Source: an uncultured Candidatus Saccharibacteria bacterium (lineage in GTDB: Bacteria; Patescibacteriota; Minisyncoccia; Phycocordibacterales; CAYSCM01). From it: a DNA stretch of 64,000 nucleotides. Where the stretch lies: the NCBI GenBank assembly GCA_964429815.1, contig CAYSCM010000001.1, positions 224,001 to 288,000 of the forward strand, written 5' to 3'. The first letter of the stretch is position 1, and the number at the start of each line of letters is the position of its first letter. A program made the translations under genes and the position numbers. The notes below the pieces were generated by a model. That model made no database searches. It was not told the DNA's origin and saw only the letters and a list, made by a program, of their open reading frames with translations. Shown in pieces: positions 39,971 through 56,592 of this stretch.

Positions 39971-42118
39971 ATGAACCGGGACTATCCACTGGAGCGAGTA
40001 CGAAACTTCGGCATCATCGCGCACATCGATGCGGGGAAGACCACCACGTCCGAGCGCGTCCTTTTTTATACCGGCTCCCAGCACAAAATCGGGGAGGTGC
40101 ACGAAGGTGAGACCACGACCGACTGGATGGAGCAGGAGCGCGAGCGCGGCATTACCATTACCGCGGCCGCCATCACTTGCTTCTGGAGCAGGACTGATGA
40201 GGTGGACAAGAATAACAAAGAAAAGAAAACGCGCTTCAACATCATCGACACCCCGGGACACATCGACTTCACCGTCGAAGTGAAGCGCTCGCTTCGCGTG
40301 CTCGACGGGGCCGTCGTCGTTTTCGACGGTGTTGCAGGGGTCGAGCCACAATCCGAAACTAACTGGCGCTACGCGGATGAGGCTTCGGTGCCGCGCATCT
40401 GTTTCATCAACAAACTCGATCGCATGGGCGCCTCCTTTGAGCGCTCCTATCAGTCAATTCTCGACCGCCTCAACAAGAGGGCGGTACGCATGCAGCTCCC
40501 GATCGGGGCAGAGGAAAACTTCTCGGGTGTTGTCGATCTTCTCAAGATGAAAGCGTATCGCTTCGAAGGAAAAATGGGTGAGACCGTCATCGAGATGGAG
40601 ATCCCGGCAGAGCTGATGGATGAGGTTAAGAAGTATCGCGCCGAGCTCATCGAGCGCATCGTTGAAAACGACGATGATGCCATGAATGCCTACCTCGAGG
40701 GCACGGAGCCGTCGATCGATGAGCTCAAGAAAATCCTCCGTAAAGCCGTCATCGCCAATAACATTTTCCCCGTCTACACCGGAAGCGCGCTCAAGAACAA
40801 AGGCGTACAGCTCGTTCTCGACGCCGTCGTCGACTACCTTCCGTCCCCTATCGACCTCCCGCCGGTTAGGGGTACTGACCCAAAGACGGGCGAGGCCATC
40901 GAGCGCAAGCCCTCCGATGCGGATCCGTTCTGTGCGCTCGCCTTTAAGCTCCAGACTGACCCCTTCGTCGGAGCGCTCACGTTCTTCCGCGTCTACTCAG
41001 GCACGGTGGAGGCGGGCTCCTATATCTACAACTCCACGACCAGTACCAAGGAGCGCCTTGGCCGCATCGTGCGCCTTCAAGCGGACAAGCGCGAAGAGGT
41101 GAAGAAGGTGTTTGCCGGTGAAATTGCCGCCGCGGTCGGCCTTAAGGACACAAAGACCTCCCACACGCTATGCGACGAGAGTAAGCCCATCGTGCTCGAG
41201 CAGATCAAATTCCCCGAGCCGGTCATTTCGATGCGCATCGAGCCGAAGACCAAGCAGGACCAGGAAAAAATGGGCATGGCGCTCAAGAAGCTCTCCGATG
41301 AAGATCCGACGTTTAAGGTCTCCGCTGATTCCGAAACTATGGAAACGCTCATCTCGGGCATGGGTGAGCTTCACCTTGAAATTATCGTCGACCGCATGAA
41401 GCGTGAGTTTGGTGTCGAGGCAAACGTCGGCAAACCGCAAGTCGCGTATCGCGAAACTATCCAGAAAGAGGCGGATGCGGAAGGCAAGTACATCAAGCAA
41501 ACCGGCGGTCGCGGCCAGTACGGACACGTACGTATTAAGATCCAACCGCTCCAGCCGATCGATCCAGAGGCGAAGGTCAAGAAAAATGTTTCGCGCGAAG
41601 ATCACTTCGAATTCGTCAACAACATCAAGGGCGGTGTCATTCCGCAGGAGTACATCCCCGCGGTCGAGAAGGGTATCAAGGAAGCGATGGAGCGCGGCAT
41701 CGTCGCGGGCTTCCGCATGGTGGATATTTCTGTCGAGCTCTATGACGGCTCCTATCACGATGTCGACTCCTCGGAAATCGCCTTTAAGATCGCTGGTTCC
41801 ATGGCATTCCAGGATGCCGCCAAGAACGCTCACCCTGTCCTTCTCGAGCCGATTATGAAAGTGGAAGTTGTCGTTCCGGAGAAATTCGTCGGCGACATCA
41901 CCGGCTCTATCAACGGCAAGCGCGGGCAGATCGAGGGTATGGAAGAGCGAGGTATGGCTCGCGCCGTGCGCGCCAAGGTGCCGCTCTCTGAAATGTTCGG
42001 CTATACGACCGCACTCCGCTCCATGACGGAAGGACGCGCTTCCTTCACCATGGAATTTGATCACTACGAAGTGGTACCGCCAAACGTCGCAAAAGAAATT
42101 ACTGAATCTCGCAAGTAG
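39971..42118 (+). CDS. fusA: elongation factor G
   Basis: 715 aa; G-domain [21 protein letters not shown]; domains II-V. Confidence 0.9.
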
Positions 42119-42120
42119 CA

Positions 42121-42150
42121 AAACCCGCTCTCTGGCGGGTTTTGCGCTAG
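42121..42150 (+). terminator. terminator after fusA (AAACCCGCTCTCTGGCGGGTTT)
   Basis: Hairpin plus TTTG. Confidence 0.6.
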
Positions 42151-42176
42151 TTTGTAAGAAGCACAGAGGAGTACCT

Positions 42177-42353
42177 CATGAGTACGCAAAAAGCTAACCC
42201 CGATCCGTTCATCGAGGGCCATCTCCGTGATCGCTACGAGCGCGGCGAGCGGCCGGACTTTCGCGAGCCGCGAAATCCTCTGCCAAAGGTGCGTCCCGGT
42301 GCCTCGATGGAGGTCGTGCCGAGCTTTATCGCCGGACGTAAAAAGAAGTAGCG
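42177..42353 (+). CDS. possible small protein (58 aa), below the ORF-track cutoff
   Basis: AGGAG RBS 6 nt upstream; followed by hairpin GCGGGCCGCCCCTAGGCGGCCCGC; composition plausible but unverified. Confidence 0.3.
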
Positions 42354-42434
42354 TGCGGGCCGCCCCTAGGCGGCCCGCGATTTATTTGCAATACTGCGGT
42401 TAACAACGTTCTTTCATAAACAGAGGAGAGAGTC

Positions 42435-42953
42435 ATGCTGGACACGTTCGGCCGCTCGATCATGGCCCTTTCGAACTCGTCCTCCAGTGGTTACTGGGCC
42501 AGCTGTCGCAGGTGGGAAGGCGTCATTGCCTTCCTCGTCATCATCGATGAAGAAAAGAAAAAGACGGCGGACGTACTGCTCCATCCGCACGACATCGAGC
42601 CTGTGCTCTATTTCTCTCTTACGGTCCCGGGCGTTCGTATCACGGAAAAGAACCGCGAGTCCGTAGGGAAGCTCGCTAGGATGGTCAACGCGCGCTTGCC
42701 GTACATCTCGATAAGCCCGGAGACGGGCGATGGCACGCTCTTCTGCTATTACGTATGGCGCTACCCCCGCATCATCGACGCCAAAGAATTCCGCGATAAC
42801 GTCGAGGAAATCACCGAAGATTTCGGTGAGGTCATGCGAACATTCCACCGCTATTTCCTCTGGCTCGTGCGCGGGAAAATAAGCCTCGAGGATCTGGAGA
42901 AGCTTCTCACTGAGCGCTTCCCCCTTGAGGGAGGCCCCCCGAGGCTCTCCTGA
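42435..42953 (+). CDS. hypothetical protein, YbjN-like (putative sensory-transduction/chaperone-like fold)
   Basis: GGAGAG RBS; preferred over the Arg-rich antisense ORF 42414-43007; followed by palindromic terminator 42969-43004. Confidence 0.45.
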   Translation: MLDTFGRSIMALSNSSSSGYWASCRRWEGVIAFLVIIDEEKKKTADVLLHPHDIEPVLYFSLTVPGVRITEKNRESVGKLARMVNARLPYISISPETGDGTLFCYYVWRYPRIIDAKEFRDNVEEITEDFGEVMRTFHRYFLWLVRGKISLEDLEKLLTERFPLEGGPPRLS

Positions 42954-43012
42954 AATCAAGACGCTCCCCGCGCGGCCCCTTGCGGCCGCGCGGTTTCTCT
43001 TTTTCATTCAGT

Positions 43013-43041
43013 TGACTATTTTTAGAAGCCCCTCTACAATT
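43013..43041 (+). promoter_or_regulatory. promoter TTGACT-17-TACAAT upstream of tuf
   Basis: Good hexamer match. Confidence 0.5.
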
Positions 43042-43201
43042 CCCCCTACGCAAGAGTGCGTTCTTTTTGTTTACCCCGGTGCACGGCCGAGGGTCACAGA
43101 GAGGCGCGCCAGGCAGATTAATAGAAGCCAAGTCTTCTTGGGTCAGGCGTCTCTCGCGCACTTACTCAAGACAGGGTTGGAAAAATTATAAACACATACA
43201 A

Positions 43202-44398
43202 ATGGCAACATTTGACCGTTCGAAGCCGCACGTCAACGTGGGCACCATCGGCCACGTCGACCACGGCAAAACGACGCTCACCGCCGGCATCCTCCATGTT
43301 CTCAACATGGCAGGAGGTGGCTACGGTGCACGCGCCGAAGCTGTCGATCAGATCGACAACGCTCCGGAAGAGAAGGCTCGTGGTATCACCATCGCCCTTC
43401 ATCACTCCGAGTACTGGACGCCTGCGCGCCACTATGCGCACATCGACGCTCCGGGCCACGCTGACTACATCAAAAACATGATCACGGGTGCCGCCCAGAT
43501 GGACGGCGCAGTGCTCGTCGTTGCAGCGACCGACGGTGTCATGCCGCAGACGCGCGAACACATCCTTCTCGCTCGCCAAGTCGGCGTGCCGAAGATCGTC
43601 GTCTTCCTCAACAAGGTAGACATGGTTCCGGATAAAGACCTCATCGACCTCGTCGAAGAGGAAGTCCGCGAGCTCCTTACCAAGAACAACTTCGATGGAG
43701 CTAATGCTCCGGTCATCCGCGGCTCGGGCCTCAAGGCGCTCGAATCGAAGGATATGAACGACGAGTACGCACAGAAGGTGCTCGAACTCGCCAAGGCACT
43801 GGATGAATACATCCCGACACCGGTTCGCGAGACGGACAAGCCGTTCCTCATGCCGATCGAAGACATCTTCTCGATCGAAGGGCGCGGTACTGTCGTCACG
43901 GGCCGCATCGAGCGCGGCAAGGTGAAAGTTGGCGAAGACGTCGAAATCGTCGGTATCAAGCCGACGGCCAAGACGACCGTGACCGGCATCGAAATGTTCA
44001 ACAAGCAGCTCGATGAGGGTCTCGCCGGCGACAACGCAGGCATCCTCCTTCGCGGCACGAAGAAAGAAGATGTACACCGCGGCCAGGTCATTTGTAAGCC
44101 AGGCTCGGTCACTCCTCACACGGAGTTTGAGTCAGAGGTCTACATCCTCAACAAGGATGAGGGCGGTCGCCACACGCCGTTCTTCACCGGCTACAAGCCG
44201 CAATTCTACGTCCGCACGACCGACGTCACCGGCGAGGTCACCCTCGCACAGGGCGTTGAAATGGTCATGCCGGGCGATACCGTTACCTTCAAAGTGAAAC
44301 TCACCGCTCCGGTAGCGCTTGAGGAAAAGCAGCGCTTCGCTATCCGCGAAGGCGGCAAGACCGTCGGCGCCGGCGTCGTCACCAAGATCGTCGCCTAA
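43202..44398 (+). CDS. tuf: elongation factor Tu
   Basis: 399 aa from [28 protein letters not shown]; the ORF-track 5' extension is not coding. Confidence 0.95.
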
Positions 44399-44427
44399 CC
44401 GCCTCTTACCTCTTCTGATTTCCGACC

Positions 44428-44805
44428 ATGGCAAGCGAAACCACCAAAAAACCCCGCGCACCTCGCACCAAAAAGGCCACTAAGGCCCCCGAGGCGCCGA
44501 TTCAGAAGCTTCGCATACGGGTGCGCGCCTACGAACACAAGCTTCTCGACGCGTCCGTAAAGCAGATCATCGACACGGCAATACGCTTCGACGCGACGGT
44601 CGTGGGGCCGGTTCCGCTTCCTACGGAAATTAAAAAATATACCGTCAATCGCTCGACCTTCGTCCACAAGAATGCGCGAGAGCAGTTCGAGATGCGGGTC
44701 CACAAACGAATGATGGATATCATGAATCCCAATCCGAAGGTGATCGAGGCACTCACGAACCTCAATCTTCCCTCCGGCGTCAACATCGACGTAAAGATGG
44801 TCTAA
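44428..44805 (+). CDS. rpsJ: 30S ribosomal protein S10 with ~25-aa basic N-terminal extension
   Basis: QKLRIRVRAYEHKLLD...GPVPLPT core. Confidence 0.9.
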   Translation: MASETTKKPRAPRTKKATKAPEAPIQKLRIRVRAYEHKLLDASVKQIIDTAIRFDATVVGPVPLPTEIKKYTVNRSTFVHKNAREQFEMRVHKRMMDIMNPNPKVIEALTNLNLPSGVNIDVKMV

Positions 44806-44825
44806 CAAAAATGCGACCACCCAAA

Positions 44826-44850
44826 AACGCTCCCAATCAGGGCGTTTTTT
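44826..44850 (+). terminator. terminator after rpsJ
   Basis: ACGCTCCCAATCAGGGCGT hairpin followed by TTTTTT. Confidence 0.5.
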
Positions 44851-44865
44851 GGTGTTACCGGCACA

Positions 44866-44895
44866 TTGACAAAATGGCCTAATTCGTGCTATAAT
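44866..44895 (+). promoter_or_regulatory. promoter TTGACA-18-TATAAT
   Basis: Exact hexamers; downstream leader contains GTGCAG/CTGCAC inverted repeats. Confidence 0.55.
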
Positions 44896-44962
44896 GTGTG
44901 CAGTATTGAACATCCTGCACTGCAGGCCTGCACCTCAAGGTTTAGGGGTAGGAGTAACTCCG

Positions 44963-45352
44963 ATGACGACCGCCGAAATCAGGATCAGTGGCAAGCGCCC
45001 CCCGAACACTCATGGCATCATGCACCTCTATATTGAGGGACAGGCCAAGCCCATCTACATCTGGACGCCTGAGGAGATCGACTGGCTCTGCGGCCATGCC
45101 GTTCACCGGCTAGACCACGCGTATGACGCTTATCTAAGGGATCTGTCCTGTCCGGAATCGATCGAGAATCCCGAGCTTCGCGAAGCAGTCCGTGTCTGCC
45201 AGAAAGAGCGAGCGGAGAAGGTGCCCCACGAAAAACGCACCTGGCTCCTTCTCTCGCCGAGAAAGATTCGCTATTCGGCGTGGGCGGGGACGCTCGTCCT
45301 TGTCTCGAACCGTGCCCGCATCGAGGAGCTCCTCCAGCTCGCGGCGGCCTAA
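44963..45352 (+). CDS. hypothetical protein (129 aa) inserted between rpsJ and rplC
   Basis: AGGAG RBS 7 nt before ATG 44963; the longer ORF-track version is probably 5'-extended. Confidence 0.45.
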   Translation: MTTAEIRISGKRPPNTHGIMHLYIEGQAKPIYIWTPEEIDWLCGHAVHRLDHAYDAYLRDLSCPESIENPELREAVRVCQKERAEKVPHEKRTWLLLSPRKIRYSAWAGTLVLVSNRARIEELLQLAAA

Positions 45353-45373
45353 GCCCACACGCGCGAACCTATT

Positions 45374-45410
45374 CCGCCCGGAAGTCTCGAACCTCCGGGC
45401 GGTTTTCTTT
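45374..45410 (+). terminator. terminator CCGCCCGGAAGTCTCGAACCTCCGGGCGG + TTTTCTTTT (member of a repeated hairpin family)
   Basis: 9-bp stem; near-identical architecture to 45944-45982. Confidence 0.6.
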
Positions 45411-45438
45411 TGACTTTTTATTTTTTTGTGATATTATT
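45410..45438 (+). promoter_or_regulatory. promoter TTGACT-17-TATTAT
   Basis: Hexamer match; AT-rich spacer. Confidence 0.5.
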
Positions 45439-45482
45439 TTGGAGGCGTCTAGAACCCCCTCAGCACAACTAGGAGTAAGAAT

Positions 45483-45926
45483 ATGAGAAACTCGACCTTC
45501 GGGAAACTCCGCCTCCTGCCTTGGGAGACACGATACACGCCGTTCTCATACTTCATCCGAAATGAAAGAAAAAAGAGAAACGTGTCGCTCAGGGCCTTCT
45601 ATAAATTTCTTGTTGACAGGCACGGAGGACCAATTGTCGGGGTCGATAATTCTCTAATCAGCAGATGGGAAACAGCAAATGCGGAACCGTCCGCTGATGC
45701 AGTGCAAGTTCTTGCAATTATTCTCGAAGTTCCACTGCAGGCGCTAGCATCTCTCATTCCGAGCGCGTGGTCGTTACTACTAATCGAGGTAGCGGATATC
45801 GTGCACATCCTCGCGGAAAGAAAATCCCAGGAGAACATGACGATTGGAGAGATGGTCCGTATGTTGCAGGACCATATTCGCCACAAATACTGGGATGAAA
45901 GCAACGATAGGATTTCACTCAAGTAA
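45483..45926 (+). CDS. XRE/Cro-C1-type helix-turn-helix transcriptional regulator (putative)
   Basis: RBS AGGAGTAAG; segment NVSLRAFYKFLVDRHGG...SLISRWETANAEPSADAVQVLAIILEVPL resembles HTH_XRE; inserted in the S10 operon. Confidence 0.5.
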   Translation: MRNSTFGKLRLLPWETRYTPFSYFIRNERKKRNVSLRAFYKFLVDRHGGPIVGVDNSLISRWETANAEPSADAVQVLAIILEVPLQALASLIPSAWSLLLIEVADIVHILAERKSQENMTIGEMVRMLQDHIRHKYWDESNDRISLK

Positions 45927-45943
45927 CAGATTTTCACCCTTCC

Positions 45944-45982
45944 GCCCGGCAGTCTCGCGACTGCCGGGCGTTTTCTTTTTTA
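45944..45982 (+). terminator. terminator CGCCCGGCAGTCTCGCGACTGCCGGGCG + TTTTCTTTTTT
   Basis: 12-bp stem plus T-run. Confidence 0.65.
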
Positions 45983-46112
45983 TTTGCATATTTTTAGAGG
46001 TTCCTGTAGTGTGTCCCCATTCGCTACGTTCTCTAGGGAATACCCGGTGGGAACCAATGGCAAGAAGGCTCTAAGAGCCCGGCGCCATTGTTGGCGTTTT
46101 TTTGTTTCAACC

Positions 46113-46748
46113 ATGAAATTCATCGTCGGATTCAAACAGCATATGACGCAGATCTTCGACGAAGCTGGCACGGTGCAGCCGGTTACCGTGCTTTCCGCTA
46201 CTCCTAACGTCGTGACTGCCATCAAGAGCAAAGAAAAGGATGGCTATATTGCGGTGCAGGTGGGTGCGGGGGAGCGCAAGGAAAAAAATATTTCAAAAGC
46301 CGTTAAGGGGCACGTGAAAGGCCACGGCAATTTTTCGGTACTTAAAGAGTTCCGCCCCGAAAATGTCGGCGACGAAGGTGAAGTCTCCAAAATGACACCA
46401 GGCACCGCGCTTGCGGTTGATGTGTTCGCTCCGGGCGACAAGGTGGTCGTCTCGGCAATTTCAAAAGGCAAAGGGTTCCAGGGTGTTGTGAAGCGCCACG
46501 GTTTCAAGGGAGATTCTCGCACGCACGGCCGCAAGCACTCCGAGCGCGCACCAGGTTCCATCGGCGGCGGAGGCCGCGCAGGAGGCCGTGTGGTGAAAGG
46601 TATGCGCATGGCAGGCCGCATGGGGTCTGATCGCATTACGGTAAAAAACCTCAAGGTGGTTGCTATCAATAAAGAAGCTGGAGAAATTCTTATTTCGGGA
46701 GCCGTTCCGGGTCGTCGGGGAACGGTCGTTGAAGTGCGCGGCATGTAA
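46113..46748 (+). CDS. rplC: 50S ribosomal protein L3
   Basis: 211 aa from MKFIVGFKQHMTQIFDE; a small hairpin plus T7 run lies 10 nt upstream of the ATG. Confidence 0.9.
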   Translation: MKFIVGFKQHMTQIFDEAGTVQPVTVLSATPNVVTAIKSKEKDGYIAVQVGAGERKEKNISKAVKGHVKGHGNFSVLKEFRPENVGDEGEVSKMTPGTALAVDVFAPGDKVVVSAISKGKGFQGVVKRHGFKGDSRTHGRKHSERAPGSIGGGGRAGGRVVKGMRMAGRMGSDRITVKNLKVVAINKEAGEILISGAVPGRRGTVVEVRGM

Positions 46749-46753
46749 ACACT

Positions 46754-47416
46754 ATGGCTGAAGTAACTATCTACAATCAGAAGGGTGAATCGGCGGGGAA
46801 GGTAAAACTTCCGGGCTTCTTCGAGACGAAGTGGAAGGCGGATGTCGTCCACCAGGTGGTCGTCGCGGAAGCGGCAAACGCTCGTGTGTCTATCGCCAAC
46901 ACCAAGGATAGAAGCGATGTGCGCGGTGGCGGCCGCAAGCCGTGGCAGCAGAAGGGTACCGGCCGAGCTCGTCACGGATCTTCTCGCTCGCCGATCTGGC
47001 GCGGAGGCGGTTCCACCTTTGGTCCGCAGAAAGAAAAGGACTACTCGCAAAAAATCAATAAGTCGATGCGCCGCAGGGCTCTCGCTATGGCACTCTCCCG
47101 CAAGGCCGCCGATGGGGAAGTGATCTTTGTCGATAAGCTCGTCTTTGCAAAGCCTTCAGCTAAAGAGGCTAAGGCAACACTCCTCGCGCTCGGCAAAAAC
47201 AAGGACTTCTCCTCGCTCAAGGATCGCCGCAACAACGCCGCTCTCATCGCGCTTTCCGAAAATGATAAAGAAGCTAAGAAGAGTTTCCGCAATTTCGGCA
47301 ATGTACTGATCGAGGAGGCACGCAACATCACCGCATCCGAGATCCTCGGCAAGAAGTACCTCATCATCGAAAATCCAACCGCGACCCTTCCGCGCTGGGA
47401 AAAAATTCTTAACTAA
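46754..47416 (+). CDS. rplD: 50S ribosomal protein L4
   Basis: 220 aa; RGGGRKPWQQKGTGRARHGS signature. Confidence 0.9.
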   Translation: MAEVTIYNQKGESAGKVKLPGFFETKWKADVVHQVVVAEAANARVSIANTKDRSDVRGGGRKPWQQKGTGRARHGSSRSPIWRGGGSTFGPQKEKDYSQKINKSMRRRALAMALSRKAADGEVIFVDKLVFAKPSAKEAKATLLALGKNKDFSSLKDRRNNAALIALSENDKEAKKSFRNFGNVLIEEARNITASEILGKKYLIIENPTATLPRWEKILN

Positions 47417-47421
47417 CCACC

Positions 47422-47838
47422 ATGGCTCTCTTCAATTTTGGAAAAAAGAAAAAGGACGCTCCGAATCTTCCTAAGAAGGCGACCCAGGCCGTGGCCGCAC
47501 CGGCGAAAGACGTAAAGATTCCGAAGGCAGCAAAAGTCTCGGGGGAGGGAGCGGGACGCTACGCGCACGTGCTTCTTCGCCCGCGCATCACGGAAAAAGC
47601 GACCGATGTCACCTCAAATAGCGTCTACGTTTTTGAAATCGATCCGCGAAGCGACAAGCGTGCCGTGCGTGAGGCGGTCAAAACCCAGTACAAGGTAAAT
47701 CCGGTGAAGATTAACATCGTGAAGCTTCCCGCTAAGCGTGTCGAGTCAAAACTTCGCGGCGGATTTCCGGGCGCGACTGCCGCGACGAAGAAGGCCTACG
47801 TCTACCTTCCTAAAGGAACCACTATTGAACTTGCATAA
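47422..47838 (+). CDS. rplW: 50S ribosomal protein L23 with ~45-aa K/A-rich N-terminal extension
   Basis: Core VLLRPRITEKAT...YVFEIDPRS...VNIV. Confidence 0.85.
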   Translation: MALFNFGKKKKDAPNLPKKATQAVAAPAKDVKIPKAAKVSGEGAGRYAHVLLRPRITEKATDVTSNSVYVFEIDPRSDKRAVREAVKTQYKVNPVKINIVKLPAKRVESKLRGGFPGATAATKKAYVYLPKGTTIELA

Positions 47839-47843
47839 CTATC

Positions 47844-48686
47844 ATGAAAAGCCATAACCCCACTTCAAAAGGCCGCCGTCAGCTTGTCTCGATCGAGTAC
47901 GGCAAATACCTCACCGCAAACGAGCCGTGGAAAGGACTCGTCTCGGGCGGCAAGCGCCGCGTCGGGCGCAACGCGTTCGGCCGTATCACGACTCGCCACA
48001 AGGGCGGCGGCCACAAGCGCCTCTTCCGCGATGTCGACTTCATGCTCACCAAGTTCGATATCCCGGCGCGCGTCGAGACTATTGAATACGACCCGAACCG
48101 CACGGCCTTTATCGCCCGCATCGTCTATCGCGATGGCGAGCGCCGCTACGTGCTCGCGAGCAAATCCATGCGTGTGGGCAATGAACTCCTCATTTCGGAG
48201 AAAGCCCCGGTGAAGCTTGGCAACCGCATGCCGCTTCGCAACATGCCGGTCGGCACTTTTGTCTACAATGTCGAGATTCAGCCGAAGGGGGGCGCCAAAC
48301 TCATCCGCTCGGCAGGGAACACTGCGGAAATCGTCGCGCAAGATGGTGACTACACAAACCTCAAGATGCCTAGTACCGAAGTGCGTCGCGTGCTCTCGGG
48401 GGCGTGGGCGACGATCGGTGAAGTATCCAACGATGAGAACAAGCTCCGCTCACTCGGAAAGGCCGGACGCTCCCGCTGGCTCGGCATTCGCCCGACCGTG
48501 CGCGGCTCCGTCATGAACCCGGTTGATCACCCACACGGCGGCGGCGAGGGTCGCCAGGGACGTGGTCGCCGACGCGCCATCTCCATCTACGGCAAACCGA
48601 CCGGCAAGGGCCAGAAGAGCCGCCGACCGAAGAAGTACAGCAACGGCATGATTCTCTCCCGACGTCGTGTCGGAAAAAACCGCTAA
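47844..48686 (+). CDS. rplB: 50S ribosomal protein L2
   Basis: 280 aa; GRNAFGRITTRHKGGGHKR, VMNPVDHPHGGGEG motifs. Confidence 0.95.
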   Translation: MKSHNPTSKGRRQLVSIEYGKYLTANEPWKGLVSGGKRRVGRNAFGRITTRHKGGGHKRLFRDVDFMLTKFDIPARVETIEYDPNRTAFIARIVYRDGERRYVLASKSMRVGNELLISEKAPVKLGNRMPLRNMPVGTFVYNVEIQPKGGAKLIRSAGNTAEIVAQDGDYTNLKMPSTEVRRVLSGAWATIGEVSNDENKLRSLGKAGRSRWLGIRPTVRGSVMNPVDHPHGGGEGRQGRGRRRAISIYGKPTGKGQKSRRPKKYSNGMILSRRRVGKNR

Positions 48687-48697
48687 AACTGATGAAA

Positions 48698-48723
48698 AAC
48701 GCCGCGACTTCCGTCGCGGCGTT
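48698..48723. terminator. bidirectional terminator hairpin AACGCCGCGACTTCCGTCGCGGCGTT between rplB and a convergent minus-strand gene
   Basis: 10-bp GC stem. Confidence 0.55.
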
Positions 48724-48728
48724 CGTGT

Positions 48729-49391
48729 TCACCAGTACGCAAAGGGATCGCGCCAGTCTGGGTAGTTATCATGGAGCCATCGGTATATTGGAGGATGCAG
48801 TTGCGGAAGTCTAGCTGCACGGCGTTTACTGTCTCTCGCCGCGTCTTCCTCAAGAAGGCGTGTATCTTCATCGGTTATTCCGTCGAACTTTCTTTCCTTC
48901 CGTTTTTCGACGTGCACAATGCCAATAAACTCGGCTGGTTTCTCTGGCTCAACAAAGGTACGGTCGATTACCACGTCGATGATATAGCCTCTTGGCCGTT
49001 CGATGGGAGCGGTGTGAATGTTGGGCGGATTCAAAGCGTAGCGACAATAGACTTGAGCGCTCTCTAAACCAAGTCGATCGTCGCTGAATTCCCGGTGTAT
49101 ATGTACCCGGAGATTCCCTTTCCTATCGAGAACATGAAGAATTCCAGAATCAGGCCTTCCGTAGGCATCGTATCCTTCGACCGCTCTCCAACCGGATGGG
49201 AGCACTACATCGAATCTCACATAATTTGGTGGCGGATTAGCCAACTCGTTAAAGAGTTGTCCATTGAGATCAAATGCTCTCAGCACCTGGAAACCTCCTC
49301 GTTGGAGCGTTTCGCGCATTCCCTTCAGTCCCTGCCAAGGGAATTCTGCATTTTCAAGAGTAAACCAGGGGAGTACTACGGTACCAGACAT
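48729..49391 (-). CDS. hypothetical protein (220 aa) inserted between rplB and rpsS
   Basis: Minus-strand AAGGAG RBS; no recognisable family. Confidence 0.5.
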   Translation of the reverse strand: MSGTVVLPWFTLENAEFPWQGLKGMRETLQRGGFQVLRAFDLNGQLFNELANPPPNYVRFDVVLPSGWRAVEGYDAYGRPDSGILHVLDRKGNLRVHIHREFSDDRLGLESAQVYCRYALNPPNIHTAPIERPRGYIIDVVIDRTFVEPEKPAEFIGIVHVEKRKERKFDGITDEDTRLLEEDAARDSKRRAARLPQLHPPIYRWLHDNYPDWRDPFAYW

Positions 49392-49467
49392 GTAATCTCC
49401 TTTTGTTTGTGGATCAGTCCTGAGGTGACATTAAATTTAAACAGCGCTTTTTGCAATAAAAGAAATT

Positions 49468-49493
49468 CACCCCGCACTTCTTTGTGCGGGGTG
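49468..49493 (-). terminator. minus-strand terminator hairpin CACCCCGCACTTCTTTGTGCGGGGTG
   Basis: 10-bp stem; T-rich on minus strand. Confidence 0.55.
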
Positions 49494-49499
49494 AGTTCG

Positions 49500-49913
49500 T
49501 CATCCGGTCTCGGACGGCACGCTGTTTTCGAGCTGTGAGCCGACCAGAACGAACGAATTAACGAAGATGATGAGAATACCCGCGAGAATGCTAAGAAACC
49601 ACAGCGGGCTCGAGAGGAGTATAATGAAGAGCGTGTAGAGTAGGGTCGCCGTGACGGAAAGCGATGAAAGCCAGGCACTTTCCTCGTCCCAATCCCACTC
49701 CCACTTCACGAAGCTTTCAGCGACCAGATACAGGACGAGGGCCGGCCCGCCAAAGAAAAAGAGGAAAAATCTCGCCCCATCGATCGCCTGAGTCATCATG
49801 GCGTCGAGGGTCATCAGCACGTGCGCCATCGTCCACGGTTTCGTCATAGGTTCTCCCTTCACGGTCTCTTGCGGAACTGTAGATCTTCTTGGGATTTTTG
49901 CAAGAATTTGCAA
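49500..49913 (-). CDS. hypothetical membrane protein (about 3 TM; possible start at 49847)
   Basis: Hydrophobic segments FFLFFFGGPALVLYLV, LLYTLFIILLSSPLWFLSILAGILIIFV. Confidence 0.45.
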   Translation of the reverse strand: MQILAKIPRRSTVPQETVKGEPMTKPWTMAHVLMTLDAMMTQAIDGARFFLFFFGGPALVLYLVAESFVKWEWDWDEESAWLSSLSVTATLLYTLFIILLSSPLWFLSILAGILIIFVNSFVLVGSQLENSVPSETG

Positions 49914-49975
49914 GAATATGAGGGATCCGAAAGAAAAACGCCGCGATCTGATGCATCGCGGCGGGGACCAAAAAT

Positions 49976-50226
49976 TCAGGCAGCGTCCTTTTCGCCGGGG
50001 AATAGAGGGTCGCTAAGCCTGTACTTAGTGATTCCGTCGCGGCGGTAGAGCGTGCCGGGTGCGTAGCCATGGCCTCGCTTCAGGCAGTAGGCCGCGACGT
50101 AGGCCCTCGCTTCCCCTTCGCTCTCGGCCGAAAAGTACTCGAGTTTTTTCTCTGCACTTCGAGCTCCCGAGACGGGATTTCGGAAAAATTTTACGTAGTT
50201 GAACTCGAACTCCTGTCGGGGCATGG
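49976..50226 (-). CDS. hypothetical small protein (83 aa from MPRQEFEF)
   Basis: AAGGAG RBS 6 nt before ATG 50226; the longer ORF-track version is Arg/Gly-rich upstream. Confidence 0.4.
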
Positions 50227-50289
50227 AAGGCTCCTTCAGTTGCGCTCCGGCCACTCTAGACCCGTTCTGTCTCCCTCGCAAGCCTCCGT

Positions 50290-50318
50290 TTGACAGTGCG
50301 GGCTCGCGCGAGTAGTAT
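50290..50318 (+). promoter_or_regulatory. promoter TTGACA-17-TAGTAT restarting transcription at rpsS
   Basis: Hexamer match 40 nt upstream of the rpsS ATG. Confidence 0.5.
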
Positions 50319-50358
50319 GTTGCCACAAGCTCTTCAGCGAGCTTTTTTGATTGAAATT

Positions 50359-50706
50359 ATGAGCCGATCGCTCAAAAAGGGACCCTACGTCGACGAGAAA
50401 CTCCTCAAGAAAATCGAGGGGAAGAAGCCCCAGTCAACCGGGGTTATTAAAACGTGGGCTCGCCGCTCCGTCATCGCTCCTACCATGGTCGGCTTCATCT
50501 TTGGCGTCTACAACGGCAAGCAGCACATCGACGTGCTGGTGACCGAGGAAATGGTAGGGCATCGCCTGGGGGAGTTCTCGCCGACCAAGAAGTTCACCCG
50601 CCATGGCGGCAAGATGCAGAAGGAGCTTGAAATTAAGAAGAAGGAGGCTGAAATTGCCGCCGCGCAGGCCGCAAAGACCGCTGCCGCGGATGCTGGCAAG
50701 AAATAA
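50359..50706 (+). CDS. rpsS: 30S ribosomal protein S19 with A/K-rich C-terminal extension
   Basis: [18 protein letters not shown]...TWARRSVI core; tail [23 protein letters not shown]. Confidence 0.9.
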
Positions 50707-50707
50707 T

Positions 50708-51076
50708 ATGAAAGCCTCTCTCAAAAACTATCGACAGGCTCCGCGAAAGGTGCGCCTCGTGACCGACATGGTGAAAGGGAAGAAAGTTCCTGAAGCTCTC
50801 GTTGCGCTCACCCATCTCCCCAAGCGTGCCGCGCTTCCCATGAAAAAACTCATCGAGTCGGCAAGCAGGAATGCCGAGAATCTCGGCATGAAGCGCGAAA
50901 ATCTTTTCATCAAAGATATTCGAGTCGACAAAGGGATCGTCTTCAAGCGCATCATGCCGCGCGCGCGTGGCCGCGGAGCCCTCATCCGTCGTGAGTCGAG
51001 CCACATTTCTCTTTCTCTTGCTGAAGGTAACCCGCCGAAGAAGGGTCGCAACGCCCCTAAAGCGGTCGCCGCATAA
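50708..51076 (+). CDS. rplV: 50S ribosomal protein L22
   Basis: 122 aa; RQAPRKVRLVTDMVKGK...ARGRGALIRRESSHISL. Confidence 0.9.
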   Translation: MKASLKNYRQAPRKVRLVTDMVKGKKVPEALVALTHLPKRAALPMKKLIESASRNAENLGMKRENLFIKDIRVDKGIVFKRIMPRARGRGALIRRESSHISLSLAEGNPPKKGRNAPKAVAA

Positions 51077-51081
51077 ACACC

Positions 51082-51771
51082 ATGACGCACACCGTACATC
51101 CCTACGCACACCGACTTGGAATACTGCGCGACTGGAAAAGCCGTTGGATAACTTCTGATCCCAAGCGCTTCCGGGAATTTGTGAAATGTGATACGACTAT
51201 TCGCGAGTTCCTCACCAAGCGCTTGCGCGGCCTCTATGTCGCCGGCGTCGACATTGAGCGCAACAATAAAGTGCTTCGCGTCATCATAAAGACTTCCCGC
51301 CCCGGCATGCTCATTGGTCGCTCCGGAGAGGGGGCTGTTAAGCTCAAGGCCGAACTGGAAAAGCTCATCGCCAAGCTCGGGCTCTCCGATCCGGTGCAGC
51401 TCAAGCTCGATATCGAAGAGGTTCGCAATCCGGAAGGCAACGCCGCCATCGTAGCCTACATGGTCGCCGAGGGTCTCGAGAAACGCCTCACGTTCCGGCG
51501 CGTTCTTAAGATGACGGTCGAAAAGGTGATGGCAAACCGCGATGTCATCGGGGTGCGCATCGCCATCGCGGGGCGACTCGGCGGGGCCGACATGAGCCGT
51601 GCGGAGGAGATCAAGCGTGGTCGCATTCCGCTCCAGACACTGCGTGCCGACATTGATTTTGCCCGTGAGAAGGCGTACCTTCCCTACGGCGTTATAGGCG
51701 TCAAAGTCTGGATCTATAAGGGCGAAGTATTCGCCGACCGCAAGGGTAGTGCGCCGAAAACCGCTAAATAA
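51082..51771 (+). CDS. rpsC: 30S ribosomal protein S3
   Basis: 229 aa; KH domain and S3-C domain motifs (GIDIERNNKVLRVII, GRLGGADMSRAEE). Confidence 0.9.
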   Translation: MTHTVHPYAHRLGILRDWKSRWITSDPKRFREFVKCDTTIREFLTKRLRGLYVAGVDIERNNKVLRVIIKTSRPGMLIGRSGEGAVKLKAELEKLIAKLGLSDPVQLKLDIEEVRNPEGNAAIVAYMVAEGLEKRLTFRRVLKMTVEKVMANRDVIGVRIAIAGRLGGADMSRAEEIKRGRIPLQTLRADIDFAREKAYLPYGVIGVKVWIYKGEVFADRKGSAPKTAK

Positions 51772-53949: not shown

Positions 53950-53979
53950 TTGACAATCTCCACTATTATATAGTATAAT
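53950..53979 (+). promoter_or_regulatory. promoter TTGACA-18-TATAAT driving the DGR target gene
   Basis: Exact hexamers; followed by RBS AAGGAGG 6 nt before ATG 54118. Confidence 0.6.
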
Positions 53980-54117: not shown

Positions 54118-54759
54118 ATGAGCGAACAACAGATCGCCAAGCTCGCCGGCGCATTGGTGGAGCACCAACGGCATTTCGGTGCCATGCCAACCGAGGATCG
54201 CCAGTGGGCGATCCAGAATACTGAAGCGGCCATCGGTCTATTCGCCGTTGCAGTGAAGAACCGCGACAACGGCCAGACACAGAAACCAAGGACGCTCTTG
54301 AAGTTCGTGGCGAGCGTAAGCATCGCCGCGATCGAAGGCTTCAAAGTCTCCGAGAACTTCGAGGAGGGGAAGTTGGGCCCGGTCAGAATCTATTGGCTCG
54401 GCGACGACTTCAAGAAGCACTTCGGCCGCAAGACCGAGAGCGCTTTGGAAGCAGTCGAGCTGAAGGTTCACACTCTGACCAAGGCTTCGCTCGATGCCCC
54501 GATCATCGCGGAACTCGCGGGCAATGCGGAGATCACGATGGGCCAGTTCTTCGCTCTGCTATCGAAGCAGGGCAAGGGCGAGAGCGGGCCGCTCCTTACG
54601 AACGGCTACGCCAACATCGCCTACATCCGCGACGACGAGGGCGTCCTATGGGCGGTGGACGCCCACTGGCACGCCGGCCGCGGGGGCTGGGACGTCTACG
54701 CCGACTCAGTCGCCTACCCGGGCGAGTGGGACCGGGGTCGCCAGGTTCTTTCCCGCTGA
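54118..54759 (+). CDS. DGR target (variable) protein, 213 aa, C-terminal variable region; no signal peptide detected
   Basis: The last ~33 codons (VR 54658-54756) are the adenine-mutagenised copy of TR; TR N codons (AAC) correspond to D/H/H/G/R/D/Y/D/A/Y/G/D/R in VR. Confidence 0.8.
   Translation: MSEQQIAKLAGALVEHQRHFGAMPTEDRQWAIQNTEAAIGLFAVAVKNRDNGQTQKPRTLLKFVASVSIAAIEGFKVSENFEEGKLGPVRIYWLGDDFKKHFGRKTESALEAVELKVHTLTKASLDAPIIAELAGNAEITMGQFFALLSKQGKGESGPLLTNGYANIAYIRDDEGVLWAVDAHWHAGRGGWDVYADSVAYPGEWDRGRQVLSR
54658..54756 (+). repeat. DGR variable region (VR)
   Basis: ~100-bp alignment to TR with 16 mismatches, every one an A in TR (A->G/C/T in VR), and no non-A differences; homology ends just after the stop codon. 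Confidence 0.85.
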
Positions 54760-55096
54760 TTCTCGAACCCTTAAGCCCTCGGCCTGAGATCCTTTGACCC
54801 TCTGAAACTTTGCGAAGCAATTTGCGAAGGAGTAGGAGGGTCTTCTATTTTTTATTTTGATATAGTAAGACGTGAGGAGTGCTACTGATGCGGCGGCTAC
54901 GGCTTCCGCACAGCGCCTCGAGTATCTGTATCGCCAGAATCACGTCGGCTAAGGCTTGCGCGAGAGCGCGTGCAGGTACTCTTAAAAAAGATAAAGAATC
55001 GGTGCCTCATGCTGGCGGACTTCAAGGTCCCACATACGATACAGCTCGGAGAGTATTCGATGGGTGGTGTTATTGATGGCTTAAGGCACACAACGG

Positions 55097-55206
55097 ATGG
55101 GCGGTGAACGCCAACTGGAACGCCGACAACGGGGGCTGGAACGTCAACGCCAACTCAGTCGACAACCCGAACGAGTGGAACCGGGGTAACCAGGTTCTTT
55201 CCCGCT
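55097..55206 (+). repeat. DGR template repeat (TR); AAC-rich (11 AAC codons in VR frame); followed by hairpin CCCCGCCCTTCGGCGGGG + TTTT
   Basis: See VR; ORF-track entry 55104-55391 is the TR read in the VR frame, not a gene. Confidence 0.85.
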
Positions 55207-55570
55207 ATTCTTTTCTTCCCCCGCCCTTCGGCGGGGTTTTGCTTTCGAGGCCCCTCTTCCATCCCCCAACCATCCGACCCAGTTCGTGCACTTTTTCCGA
55301 GAGAGCAGCATACCTCTTTGTGTCAAGCGCGCGCAGCTCCCATGCGACTCGTAAAAGGAATTTCGCGGTGTCTATTTTTTTGAGTGTGTGAAAAAGTGTC
55401 GGCACTTTTTCACCCGAGCCCTGATAACTTGCGGTGAAGAGAAGTTCCAGCGTGTCTATGAGCGAAAAGTCGATGCGCTCACCGAGTGTATACCGGGCGT
55501 TTTTTGGAAAGTTGTTCCTGCACTCATGCCAGATTTTATATACTGCAACAGCATGTTCAATAACCGGCAA
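55205..55570 (-). CDS. avd: Avd-like accessory protein (four-helix-bundle / 23S rRNA-IVS protein family)
   Basis: 121 aa; HAVAVYKIWHECRNNFPKNARYTLGERIDFSLIDTLELLFTASY resembles IVS/Avd four-helix-bundle proteins; on the strand opposite TR and RT; stop codon abuts the TR 3' end. Confidence 0.65.
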   Translation of the reverse strand: MPVIEHAVAVYKIWHECRNNFPKNARYTLGERIDFSLIDTLELLFTASYQGSGEKVPTLFHTLKKIDTAKFLLRVAWELRALDTKRYAALSEKVHELGRMVGGWKRGLESKTPPKGGGRKE

Positions 55571-55590
55571 AAGTCGTTGGGGGGGTCGCT

Positions 55591-56592
55591 TTGAGGTCGC
55601 AACTCGCTCATACGTATGACGATATCATCTCGCTAGAAAATCTCCTTGCCGCATGGCAGGAATTCGTGCGCGGGAAGCGCAAAAAATGCGACGTGCAAGA
55701 GTTTCAGTTTCGGCTCGTGGACAATATTCTTGAGCTCTACCGTGACTTGAAAGAGAAAACATACACGCATGGGCCGTACCACCCTTTTAAAATAAGCGAC
55801 CCTAAACCCCGCGACATCCACAAGGCGAGCGTACGCGACCGGCTCCTCCACCACGCAATATATCGGAAACTCTATCCATTCTTCGACAAAATTTTCATTG
55901 CCGATTCGTACTCATGCAGGAAAGGCAAAGGAACACACAAGGCGATGAACCGTTTTCGTTCCTTTGCATACAAGGCGAGCTTAAATCACACAAAAACGCT
56001 TTGGGTGCTCAAGTGCGACATCAAAAAGTTCTTTGCATCAGTCGATCAGCATGTTCTCCTGGAGATTATTAGGCGCTGCATTTCTGACACCGACATCCTC
56101 TGGCTCATCGAGCGAGTCGTGCAGAGTTTCAATCCCAGCAGGGAGGGCACGGGTCTCCCGCTCGGCAATCTCACCTCGCAGCTTTTAGTGAATGTGTATA
56201 TGAACGAGTTTGACCAGTTTGTGAAGCGCACCCTCAAAGCGAAATACTACATCCGTTACGCCGATGATTTTGTGATTTTCTCGCAAGATGCGAAATGGCT
56301 CCAACAAATATGCAAATATATCAGCATATTCTTACGTGAACGGCTGAAACTCGAATTGCACCCTAATAAAGTATCGATCACAACGCTCGCATCCGGTATC
56401 GATTTTCTCGGCTGGGTGAATTTTCCTGATCATCGCGTGCTACGCACCTCGACAAAGCGGCGGATGTTGAAGCGAATGACTGGTGAGCAATCTAAAGAGA
56501 TCATCAAACCGTATTTAGGGCTTCTTCAACATGGGAACAGCAAAAAGCTGCAATTGAAAATCTTGTTTGACACAGCAGAGGCAATCAAGTAA
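55591..56592 (+). CDS. DGR-type reverse transcriptase (TTG start)
   Basis: 333 aa; motifs [45 protein letters not shown] (SQ in place of group-II QG), RYADDFVIF; no maturase/X domain; G-rich RBS. Confidence 0.85.

Follow-up and report, generated by a model that had tools for sequence, protein, structure and literature searches.

Two orphan genes and a candidate leader RNA between rpsJ and rplC in a Patescibacteria ribosomal protein gene cluster

Gene content of the rpsJ-rplC junction

We analysed a 64-kb stretch of contig CAYSCM010000001.1 (64,000 nucleotides, hereafter the window), in which two small open reading frames (ORFs), ORF1 and ORF2, lie between the ribosomal protein genes rpsJ and rplC. 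The genome belongs to the Patescibacteria (Parcubacteria/Paceibacterota-like), and the window contains its str/S10/spc ribosomal cluster. When 185,579 species representatives were searched, the closest L3 matches were metagenome-assembled Patescibacteria with at most 65% identity. The genes are ordered fusA, two small ORFs, tuf, rpsJ, ORF1, ORF2, rplC, rplD, rplW and rplB; on the 3′ side of rplB there are three minus-strand ORFs, then rpsS, rplV, rpsC and onward (Table 1). The distance from tuf to rpsJ is 29 nt, and that from the end of ORF2 to the start of rplC is 187 nt. An earlier reading of the same DNA, here called the original prediction, had placed two ORFs between rpsJ and rplC, and we confirmed both with the coordinates given in the table.

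A terminator-like hairpin, T0, begins 13 nt past the rpsJ stop codon (-17.6 kcal/mol, z-score -2.1). The ORF1 promoter is among only four perfect consensus matches in the 64 kb, and such matches appeared in none of 100 shuffles. The original prediction had also regarded both genes as inserted, each with its own promoter and terminator, and our results support this view of them as lineage-specific units. Taken as a whole, the explanation that we favour, and consider probable, is that the 1.3-kb spacer is a gap separating two transcription units (tuf-rpsJ and rplC-rplD-rplW-rplB) and not an interrupted S10 operon. Such a space can accept genes without polar effects, and ORF1 and ORF2 are ordinary accessory cargo in it, each a single-gene unit. 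Judging from sequence comparisons, rplC and the genes that follow it are most likely governed by the promoter of rplC itself and a leader RNA, not by ORF2.

Table 1. Features of the window, with positions counted from its first nucleotide.
Feature	Position	Strand	Description
fusA	39971-42118		
tuf	43202		true ATG
rpsJ	44428-44805		Pfam Ribosomal_S10, 1e-32
T0	44818-44854	+	terminator-like hairpin 3′ of rpsJ; CACCCAAAAACGC...GCGUUUUUUGGUG; 13-nt arms, 92% complementary
ORF1 promoter	44866-44895	+	TTGACA-18-TATAAT with TG extension; 12/12 match
Triple half-site palindrome	44914-44932	.	CCTGCA-C-TGCAGG-CCTGCA; candidate operator or hairpin in the RNA of the 5′ untranslated region (UTR)
ORF1	44963-45352	+	129 aa; AGGAG ribosome-binding site 8 nt upstream
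T1	45374-45411	+	hairpin 45374-45402 and U-run; -20.0 kcal/mol, z-score -4.1; paralogue of T2
ORF2 promoter	45410-45437	+	TTGACT-16-TATTAT with TG; 10/12, consensus match alone
ORF2	45483-45926	+	147 aa; divergent XRE/Cro/CI-type helix-turn-helix (HTH), ~residues 20-90; two long C-terminal helices; AGGAG ribosome-binding site
T2	45943-45981	+	hairpin 45943-45970 and U-run; -27.1 kcal/mol, z-score -7.0
rplC promoter	45984-46012	+	TTGCAT-17-TAGTGT, TG before; read from sequence; family consensus TTGCAT ... TGTATAGTG
rplC leader RNA	46016-46112	+	~97 nt; rplC AUG at 46113
Leader CGCUACG	46022-46028		
Leader P1 hairpin	46028-46054		
Leader ACCAAUGG	46053-46060		
Leader P2	46067-46079		
Leader terminator	46081-46098		U-run 46099-46105
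Leader P3 partner	46084-46090		GCCAUUG
rplC	46113-46748		Pfam Ribosomal_L3, 7e-14
rplB	ends 48686		
Perfect consensus promoter	53950-53979		precedes the retroelement target gene
Retroelement target ORF	54118-54759		variable repeat 54648-54757
Retroelement template repeat	55097-55206		all mismatches within the repeat at template adenines
Retroelement reverse transcriptase	55591-56592		RVT_1, 4e-26

A leader RNA upstream of rplC

In a subset of loci, the motif upstream of rplC runs (5′ to 3′) from the promoter through CGCUACG, the variable hairpin P1, GGACCAAUGG and the second hairpin P2 to a GC-rich hairpin followed by a U-run and then the AUG. CGCUACG, P1 and ACCAAUGG make up its conserved core. 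The same promoter layout recurs upstream of rplC in dozens of loci; the copy in the window was missed at the threshold of a simple promoter scan. Scanning metagenome contigs with a three-block pattern yielded 110 matches, and 70 of these were directly before an L3 gene. We then built a covariance model from 11 seeds and searched the window and 80 loci chosen by L3 and not by the leader pattern (893 kb, both strands). Of the eight matches with E≤1, seven extend to the rplC start and end there; one of these seven (46016-46115, 42.6 bits, E = 2.8e-7) was the sole match in the window. The match in L056 (E = 0.18) lies ~130 nt upstream of rplC in the same spacer. A second match in L157 (244-329, E = 0.03) was rejected as spurious, being the rpsJ stop codon and its terminator.

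The leader was also found without cargo, where the rpsJ-rplC gaps were 145-222 nt. In about 60 other Parcubacteria it immediately precedes rplC, with no relative of ORF1 or ORF2 in the spacer where this is visible, and both the leader and the rplC promoter are kept in L185, the nearest relative that we found. As they are present without cargo, with unrelated cargo, and in the nearest relative without ORF1 and ORF2, rpsJ and rplC appear to be separate transcription units in the clade. Comparison with Rfam 15 gave no family match for the leader; the window as a whole yielded four tRNAs alone, and nothing relevant appeared at E≤10 in 44700-46250. Similarly, no description of this leader was found in the searchable literature.

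We aligned 65 leader sequences under the guidance of the covariance model. A plain MAFFT alignment with RNAalifold had recovered three pairs alone, as the hairpins were misaligned, and was replaced. In P1 and the terminator, 88% of the cells are paired, and changes on both sides occurred in 13 of 14 pairs (152 cells). The covariation score of these helices was 0.404, compared with 0.03-0.095 for slid controls, and was reached by none of 500 shuffles. Two further pairings, P3 and P0, lay outside the covariance model. In P3, CAAUGGC pairs with GCYRUUG and overlaps the 5′ arm and loop of the terminator; in P0, the 5′ CGCU pairs with the 3′ arm of the terminator. Together they were 92.4% paired, compared with 32-38% for slid controls, the variation being limited to A/G opposite U and C/U opposite G. 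This is a sign of consistency, not of covariation. When the window sequence was folded, the terminator structure (-36.7 kcal/mol) and the structure with the P3 antiterminator forced (-34.0 kcal/mol) were nearly equal in energy. In the minimum-energy fold, GCUA is paired with UGGC as well, lengthening P1. The element has the features of a ribosomal protein leader, that is, a conserved position in the 5′ UTR of a ribosomal protein operon in many genomes and a structure supported by covariation.

In some loci, the core is followed by a different arrangement. The variant in L037 keeps the core and has a plain terminator after it, and in L049, L052 and L058 the core is placed 8-9 nt before the AUG. 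The retention of the core with interchangeable expression platforms argues that it is a ligand-binding site. A second conserved type was observed ~60-170 nt upstream of rplC in the Nomurabacteria-like loci L015, L034, L036 and L056; it contains GAGCGAAGCGATTATATTTTC, after which most of these loci have a long hairpin (for example, AACCCTGTTAAAT...ATTTAACAGGG). This type may represent a further class of leader.

We infer that the leader is a ribosomal-protein-type attenuator with a terminator/antiterminator switch, for which uL4 or uL3 is the candidate ligand. When the antiterminator (P0 and P3) is formed, RNA polymerase would read into rplC. A ribosomal protein of the operon, if in excess, would bind the invariant core and hold CAAUGG paired with GCUA. 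The antiterminator would then be blocked, the terminator would form, and transcription would stop 8-14 nt before the rplC AUG. The analogy with the E. coli S10 leader suggests uL4. The alternative is uL3, which is encoded by the first gene and interacts with 23S rRNA in domain VI (PMC9935924).

The proposed switch can be compared with two known leaders. In E. coli, the S10 leader confers uL4-mediated, NusA-dependent attenuation and also translational control. Like it, the rplC leader is structured and has a terminator hairpin a few nt before the first cistron of a uL3/uL4/uL23/uL2 unit, and it might follow the same logic of autogenous feedback. However, it is located before rplC and downstream of rpsJ, whereas the E. 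coli leader is upstream of rpsJ; it has an explicit competition between antiterminator and terminator and a different conserved core; and it is restricted to Parcubacteria-like lineages, a sequence relation between the two not being established. The original prediction had also drawn the comparison with the E. coli leader. It holds as far as position is concerned, since an attenuator-like leader does precede rplC, but the RNA element is independent of ORF2. The L4-Archaeoglobi motif, described by comparative genomics (Eckert and Weinberg 2020, PMC7247131), is likewise a conserved RNA motif upstream of rplC-rplD-rplW-rplB, and uL4 was proposed as its ligand from prior knowledge. It differs in belonging to another domain of life and in the motif itself, and the text of that study names neither Parcubacteria, Patescibacteria nor candidate phyla (PMC7247131). 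Should uL4 or uL3 be sensed by the rplC leader, this would, to the extent of our search, be the first description of a ribosomal-protein feedback element in these ultra-small bacteria. To our knowledge, little of their gene regulation has been described. The leader, apparently undescribed, is the notable part of this locus and offers a compact target for in vitro work.

The inserted genes and their terminators

For ORF1, neither a word-indexed search of 5.8 billion clustered proteins nor a full HMMER scan of 1.84 billion representative proteins recovered anything but the query, and there was no match in Pfam, PHROG, NCBIfam, PADLOC or PDB. Its AlphaFold2 model, with a predicted local distance difference test score (pLDDT) of 43, was too poor for a fold search. 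The GC content at third codon positions (GC3) of ORF1 is 0.74, like that of native genes. Because of this native-like composition and the exact framing by a promoter, a ribosome-binding site and a terminator, ORF1 is probably a real gene without relatives (an ORFan).

ORF2 could be assigned, marginally, to the XRE family as a divergent member. It passed the Pfam HTH_3 profile (PF01381) with 23.2 bits, the gathering score being 23.0 (E = 7e-5, residues 52-87), so that the HTH_XRE-like segment seen in the original prediction was narrowly upheld. Residues 49-95 gave weak but consistent HTH matches in PHROGs, NCBIfam and PADLOC. The segment VGVDNSLISRWETANAEP can be aligned to residues 23-56 of the P22 C2 repressor, where the recognition helix lies, at E = 0.046, which alone is not significant. 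An AlphaFold2 model from the single sequence was all-helical, with five short helices at 20-89, at low confidence (mean pLDDT 53), and was also too poor for a fold search. Thus, ORF2 resembles XRE/Cro/CI regulators (HTH_3, phage P22 C2 repressor) in its recognition-helix signature (..VGV-N-ISRWE.....EP..) and in being small, stand-alone and, in the model, all-helical. It differs from them in its marginal score, in having no detectable homologue, and in an unassigned C-terminal half. TniQ and RmrA were considered as identities of ORF2 and rejected; both were weak matches with similarity in the HTH only, and the context does not fit.

Among the 5.8 billion proteins, the word-indexed search with ORF2 recovered only itself. 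Neither tblastn nor phmmer turned up a relative of either ORF among the 72 cargo ORFs and all 190 loci fetched. When ORF1, ORF2, S10 and L3 were looked up as exact proteins, the matches were to contigs of the same organism alone (SRR12313479, SRR12313480 and the NCBI contig), with no visible strain variation. The GC content of ORF2 (0.48) and its GC3 (0.55) are under those of most neighbours. We also considered a foreign origin from composition, which was not decisive: ORF1 is native-like, and the GC3 of ORF2 is near that of rplC (0.58).

The hairpins of T1 and T2 start 21 nt and 16 nt past the preceding stop codons, respectively, and both are followed by UUUUCUUUU. Each has the stable GC-rich hairpin and U-run, just past a stop codon, of a predicted intrinsic (Rho-independent) terminator. 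Two near-identical hairpin terminators had been noted in the original prediction, and their homology is supported by our comparisons. T1 and T2 lie within a 56-nt direct repeat (45372-45427 and 45940-45995, 75% identical, starts 568 nt apart), which includes the beginning of the next promoter. They share 23 of 34 stem-region bases, the highest value among the distinct-site pairs of 51 terminator-like sites (next 20, median 12-13). The UUUUCUUUU-type tail carries no weight as evidence, because it is common to terminators of this genome and is also found on others in the window. From this sequence comparison, T1 and T2, each with the start of the promoter after it, are taken to be diverged duplicates of one terminator-promoter module. 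The further suggestion that they belong to a repeat family (CCGCCCGG-AGTCTCG, CCGCCCGGNAGTCTCG-type hairpin) was not supported. Only T1 and T2 matched CGCCCGGNAGTCTCG at up to two mismatches in the 64 kb (T2 on both strands), and no other terminator-like site was similar. At least three copies at unrelated sites, as in a dispersed repeat of the repetitive extragenic palindrome or miniature inverted-repeat transposable element kind, were not present within these 64 kb. The full hairpin pattern had no match in 2.9 million viral contigs.

We next compared the junction in other Patescibacteria. Loci were fetched through L3 and S10 was then located in them. Across 80 distinct loci from two locus sets, the rpsJ-rplC gap ranged from 7 to 10313 nt; it was 7-40 nt in many Patescibacteria and exceeded 500 nt in about a quarter of the L3-fetched loci. 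The 72 candidate cargo ORFs of the larger gaps fell into 69 clusters, 66 of them singletons, and none resembled ORF1 or ORF2 at phmmer E≤10. Pfam matches over 34 cargo ORFs were scattered (sugar transferase, SpoU methylase, SAM methyltransferase, ParE/YafQ toxin, pilin, PaaX-like and others), and most ORFs had no match. The junction is thus one that accessory genes unrelated to each other occupy repeatedly.

The nearest relative, L185 (on the same contig as L155), has 86% protein identity in L3 and ~75-83% DNA identity in the flanks. Homology between L185 and the window is lost at the rpsJ stop codon and picks up again precisely at T2 (45942). In between, L185 encodes a membrane-type protein of 73 aa and a basic one of 69 aa; both ORFs have a promoter of their own and a T1/T2-like terminator, and these modules occupy the same two places as in the window. 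The four terminator-promoter modules of the window and L185 align as CGCC-G...TCG...U-run, followed by the first (-35) hexamer of the promoter. This is suggestive of a two-slot scaffold older than its cargo, the cargo having turned over. The arrangement is similar to flexible genomic islets and integron-like cassette arrays in that unrelated, mostly orphan ORFs fill the same slot in related genomes, and in that each cargo ORF of this lineage precedes a similar imperfect palindrome. However, there is no integrase adjoining the insert, and both inserted genes have promoter-like sites of their own, whereas integron gene cassettes are promoterless. The attC core (GTTRRRY) was absent when T1 and T2 were read; the hairpins end in GGGCG(G)UUUUC and have U-runs as in ordinary terminators.

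Roles considered for ORF1 and ORF2

The original prediction proposed ORF2 as a transcription factor controlling the rplC-rplB ribosomal protein genes. Only proximity (187 nt) speaks for this role, which we regard as very improbable. Both the promoter of rplC and its leader are kept in L185 and about 60 further Parcubacteria genomes, with no relative of ORF1 or ORF2 in the visible spacers; as they occur elsewhere without these genes, ORF2 is not needed to explain rplC regulation. In addition, T2 is predicted to insulate ORF2 from rplC, and the operator search found neither a palindrome nor an ORF2-specific element in the rplC promoter and leader (45984-46112). There was also no palindrome at the ORF2 promoter. 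The only notable array, the triple half-site palindrome, fronts ORF1, and we infer that ORF2 most likely regulates itself or ORF1, through this candidate site, and not the ribosomal genes. A refinement compatible with the favoured explanation is that the two form a regulator-target pair, in which the XRE protein would bind 44914-44932 and repress ORF1. XRE repressors typically bind such palindromes beside their own locus. The palindrome occurs once in the window (0.05 expected at up to three mismatches), ~12 to 30 nt past the expected start of the 12/12 ORF1 promoter, and the nonamer TGCASTGCA is confined to two sites in the window, the palindrome and 45698 within ORF2 (0.3 expected). However, the palindrome was spotted post hoc and is equally able to form an RNA hairpin, the promoter of ORF2 has no matching site, and homologues in which co-occurrence could be compared were not found. 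Such a pair is possible, though we think it rather unlikely. The nonamer inside ORF2, TGCAGTGCA, belongs to a 14-nt inverted repeat (45698-45739, 86% complementary).

The original prediction allowed for a mobile-element remnant, and ORF1 and ORF2 could be a decayed prophage or mobile element integrated at the hairpin, with T1 and T2 as the duplicated remnants of an attachment site around ORF2. The 56-nt direct repeat does bracket ORF2, the GC and GC3 of ORF2 are low, its PHROG matches are weak matches to transcription regulators, and XRE repressors are common in phages. Yet the insert has no integrase, transposase, structural gene or att-like repeat, neither ORF has a significant phage-family match or any homologue found, and the hairpin pattern was unmatched among the viral contigs. 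Both repeats are functional-looking terminators right after stop codons, and a relative whose cargo differs has a counterpart of T2, so that we consider this origin improbable. The annotated neighbours (fusA to rpsC, and rplE-rpsH) comprise translation genes, family-less ORFs and a retroelement reverse transcriptase, with no integrase among them, although the window was not scanned for integrase. The lengths of the two proteins (129 and 147 aa), like the XRE domain, would suit a type II toxin-antitoxin or defence pair whose antitoxin is of the XRE type; there were weak matches to MqsA-type and Xre/MbcA-type antitoxins and PADLOC RmrA, in the HTH only, and a ParE/YafQ-type pair fills the same junction in L041. 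However, the strong terminator T1 and a promoter separate the two genes, which are predicted not to be co-transcribed, and ORF1 matches no toxin or defence family. There is very little chance, in our judgement, that they are such a pair.

Several points weigh against the favoured explanation, in which ORF1 and ORF2 are accessory cargo and rplC is controlled through its own leader. The promoters, terminators, attenuator and transcript ends are all predictions, and ORF2 could bind near rplC through an unrecognised site. The absence of ORF2 homologues depends on the word-indexed search alone. The likeness of terminators between species was compared by alignment without statistics and may partly be convergence of GC-rich terminators. 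In the leader, the search pattern prescribed the 5′ arms of P3, P0 and P1a, which makes compensatory changes unobservable there; those in these arms are limited to a few variants read by eye (GCUA..UAGC in L046, CCA..UGG in L037 and L018, and an additional GCCUCG:CGAGGC in L037), which agree with the GCUA-UGGC pairing. The sole rRNA resemblance, AYGCCAAUGGCA at ~2699-2710 of E. coli 23S, is close to chance. There, AUGCCAAUGGCA (L193) resembles the leader core minus the P1 hairpin (A-Y-G|C-CAAUGGCA); the CCAAUGG heptamer at 2703 has ~0.18 expected by chance, E. coli 23S being the only sequence compared, and there were no 23S fragments in the fetched loci. We take this segment to be in domain VI, and it may lie in H97, which is linked to uL6 rather than uL3.

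Other junctions and start signals

Inserts are not confined to the rpsJ-rplC junction. The fusA-tuf region (42178-42953) has two plus-strand ORFs and the rplB-rpsS region (48729-50224) has three minus-strand ORFs. None of them gave a significant informative match in Pfam, PHROGs, NCBIfam or PADLOC; there were weak ones alone, such as that of a 220-aa ORF to a PHROG of unknown function (E = 4e-4). The fusA-tuf spacer of L185 is 2 kb long and has different ORFs. Among the 41 Patescibacteria loci with both rplB and rpsS (L003-L059), 29 have a gap of more than 300 nt between them, which is commoner than at rpsJ-rplC. A diversity-generating retroelement is located between rplE and rpsH (54118-56592; Table 1). 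The 64 kb thus hold two orphan genes at the junction described here, five orphan ORFs at two others and a retroelement at a fourth. Within this branch of the Candidate Phyla Radiation, the textbook S10 operon is divided, and the gene order of the most conserved bacterial cluster is permissive there. Besides the rplC leader, this mosaic organisation of the cluster is of real interest.

A wider proposal is that the conserved terminator-promoter modules of the rpsJ-rplC gap, together with similar gaps at fusA-tuf, rplB-rpsS and rplE-rpsH, mark out dedicated exchangeable slots in the Parcubacteria ribosomal-protein supercluster. They would be strongly transcribed, insulated landing pads, in which orphan genes are swapped by recombination between hairpin modules or arise de novo. 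We consider the proposal, as one claim, highly doubtful; if true, the slots would be an integrase-less, cassette-like system of gene turnover.

Start signals also differ among the genes of the cluster. Among 17 gene starts (39971-51771), a GGAG-type Shine-Dalgarno sequence was present 6-9 nt before the ATG in all seven accessory ORFs. Comparatively, rpsJ, rplC, rplD, rplW, rplB, rpsS and rpsC have no Shine-Dalgarno sequence and instead have an A/C-rich, 'aaacacc'-like one, and tuf looked alike by eye. The tuf (43012-43070) and rpsS (50290-50350) units each open with a promoter-like site, and within ~10-30 nt of it comes a short hairpin with a U-run, an arrangement that is attenuator-like.

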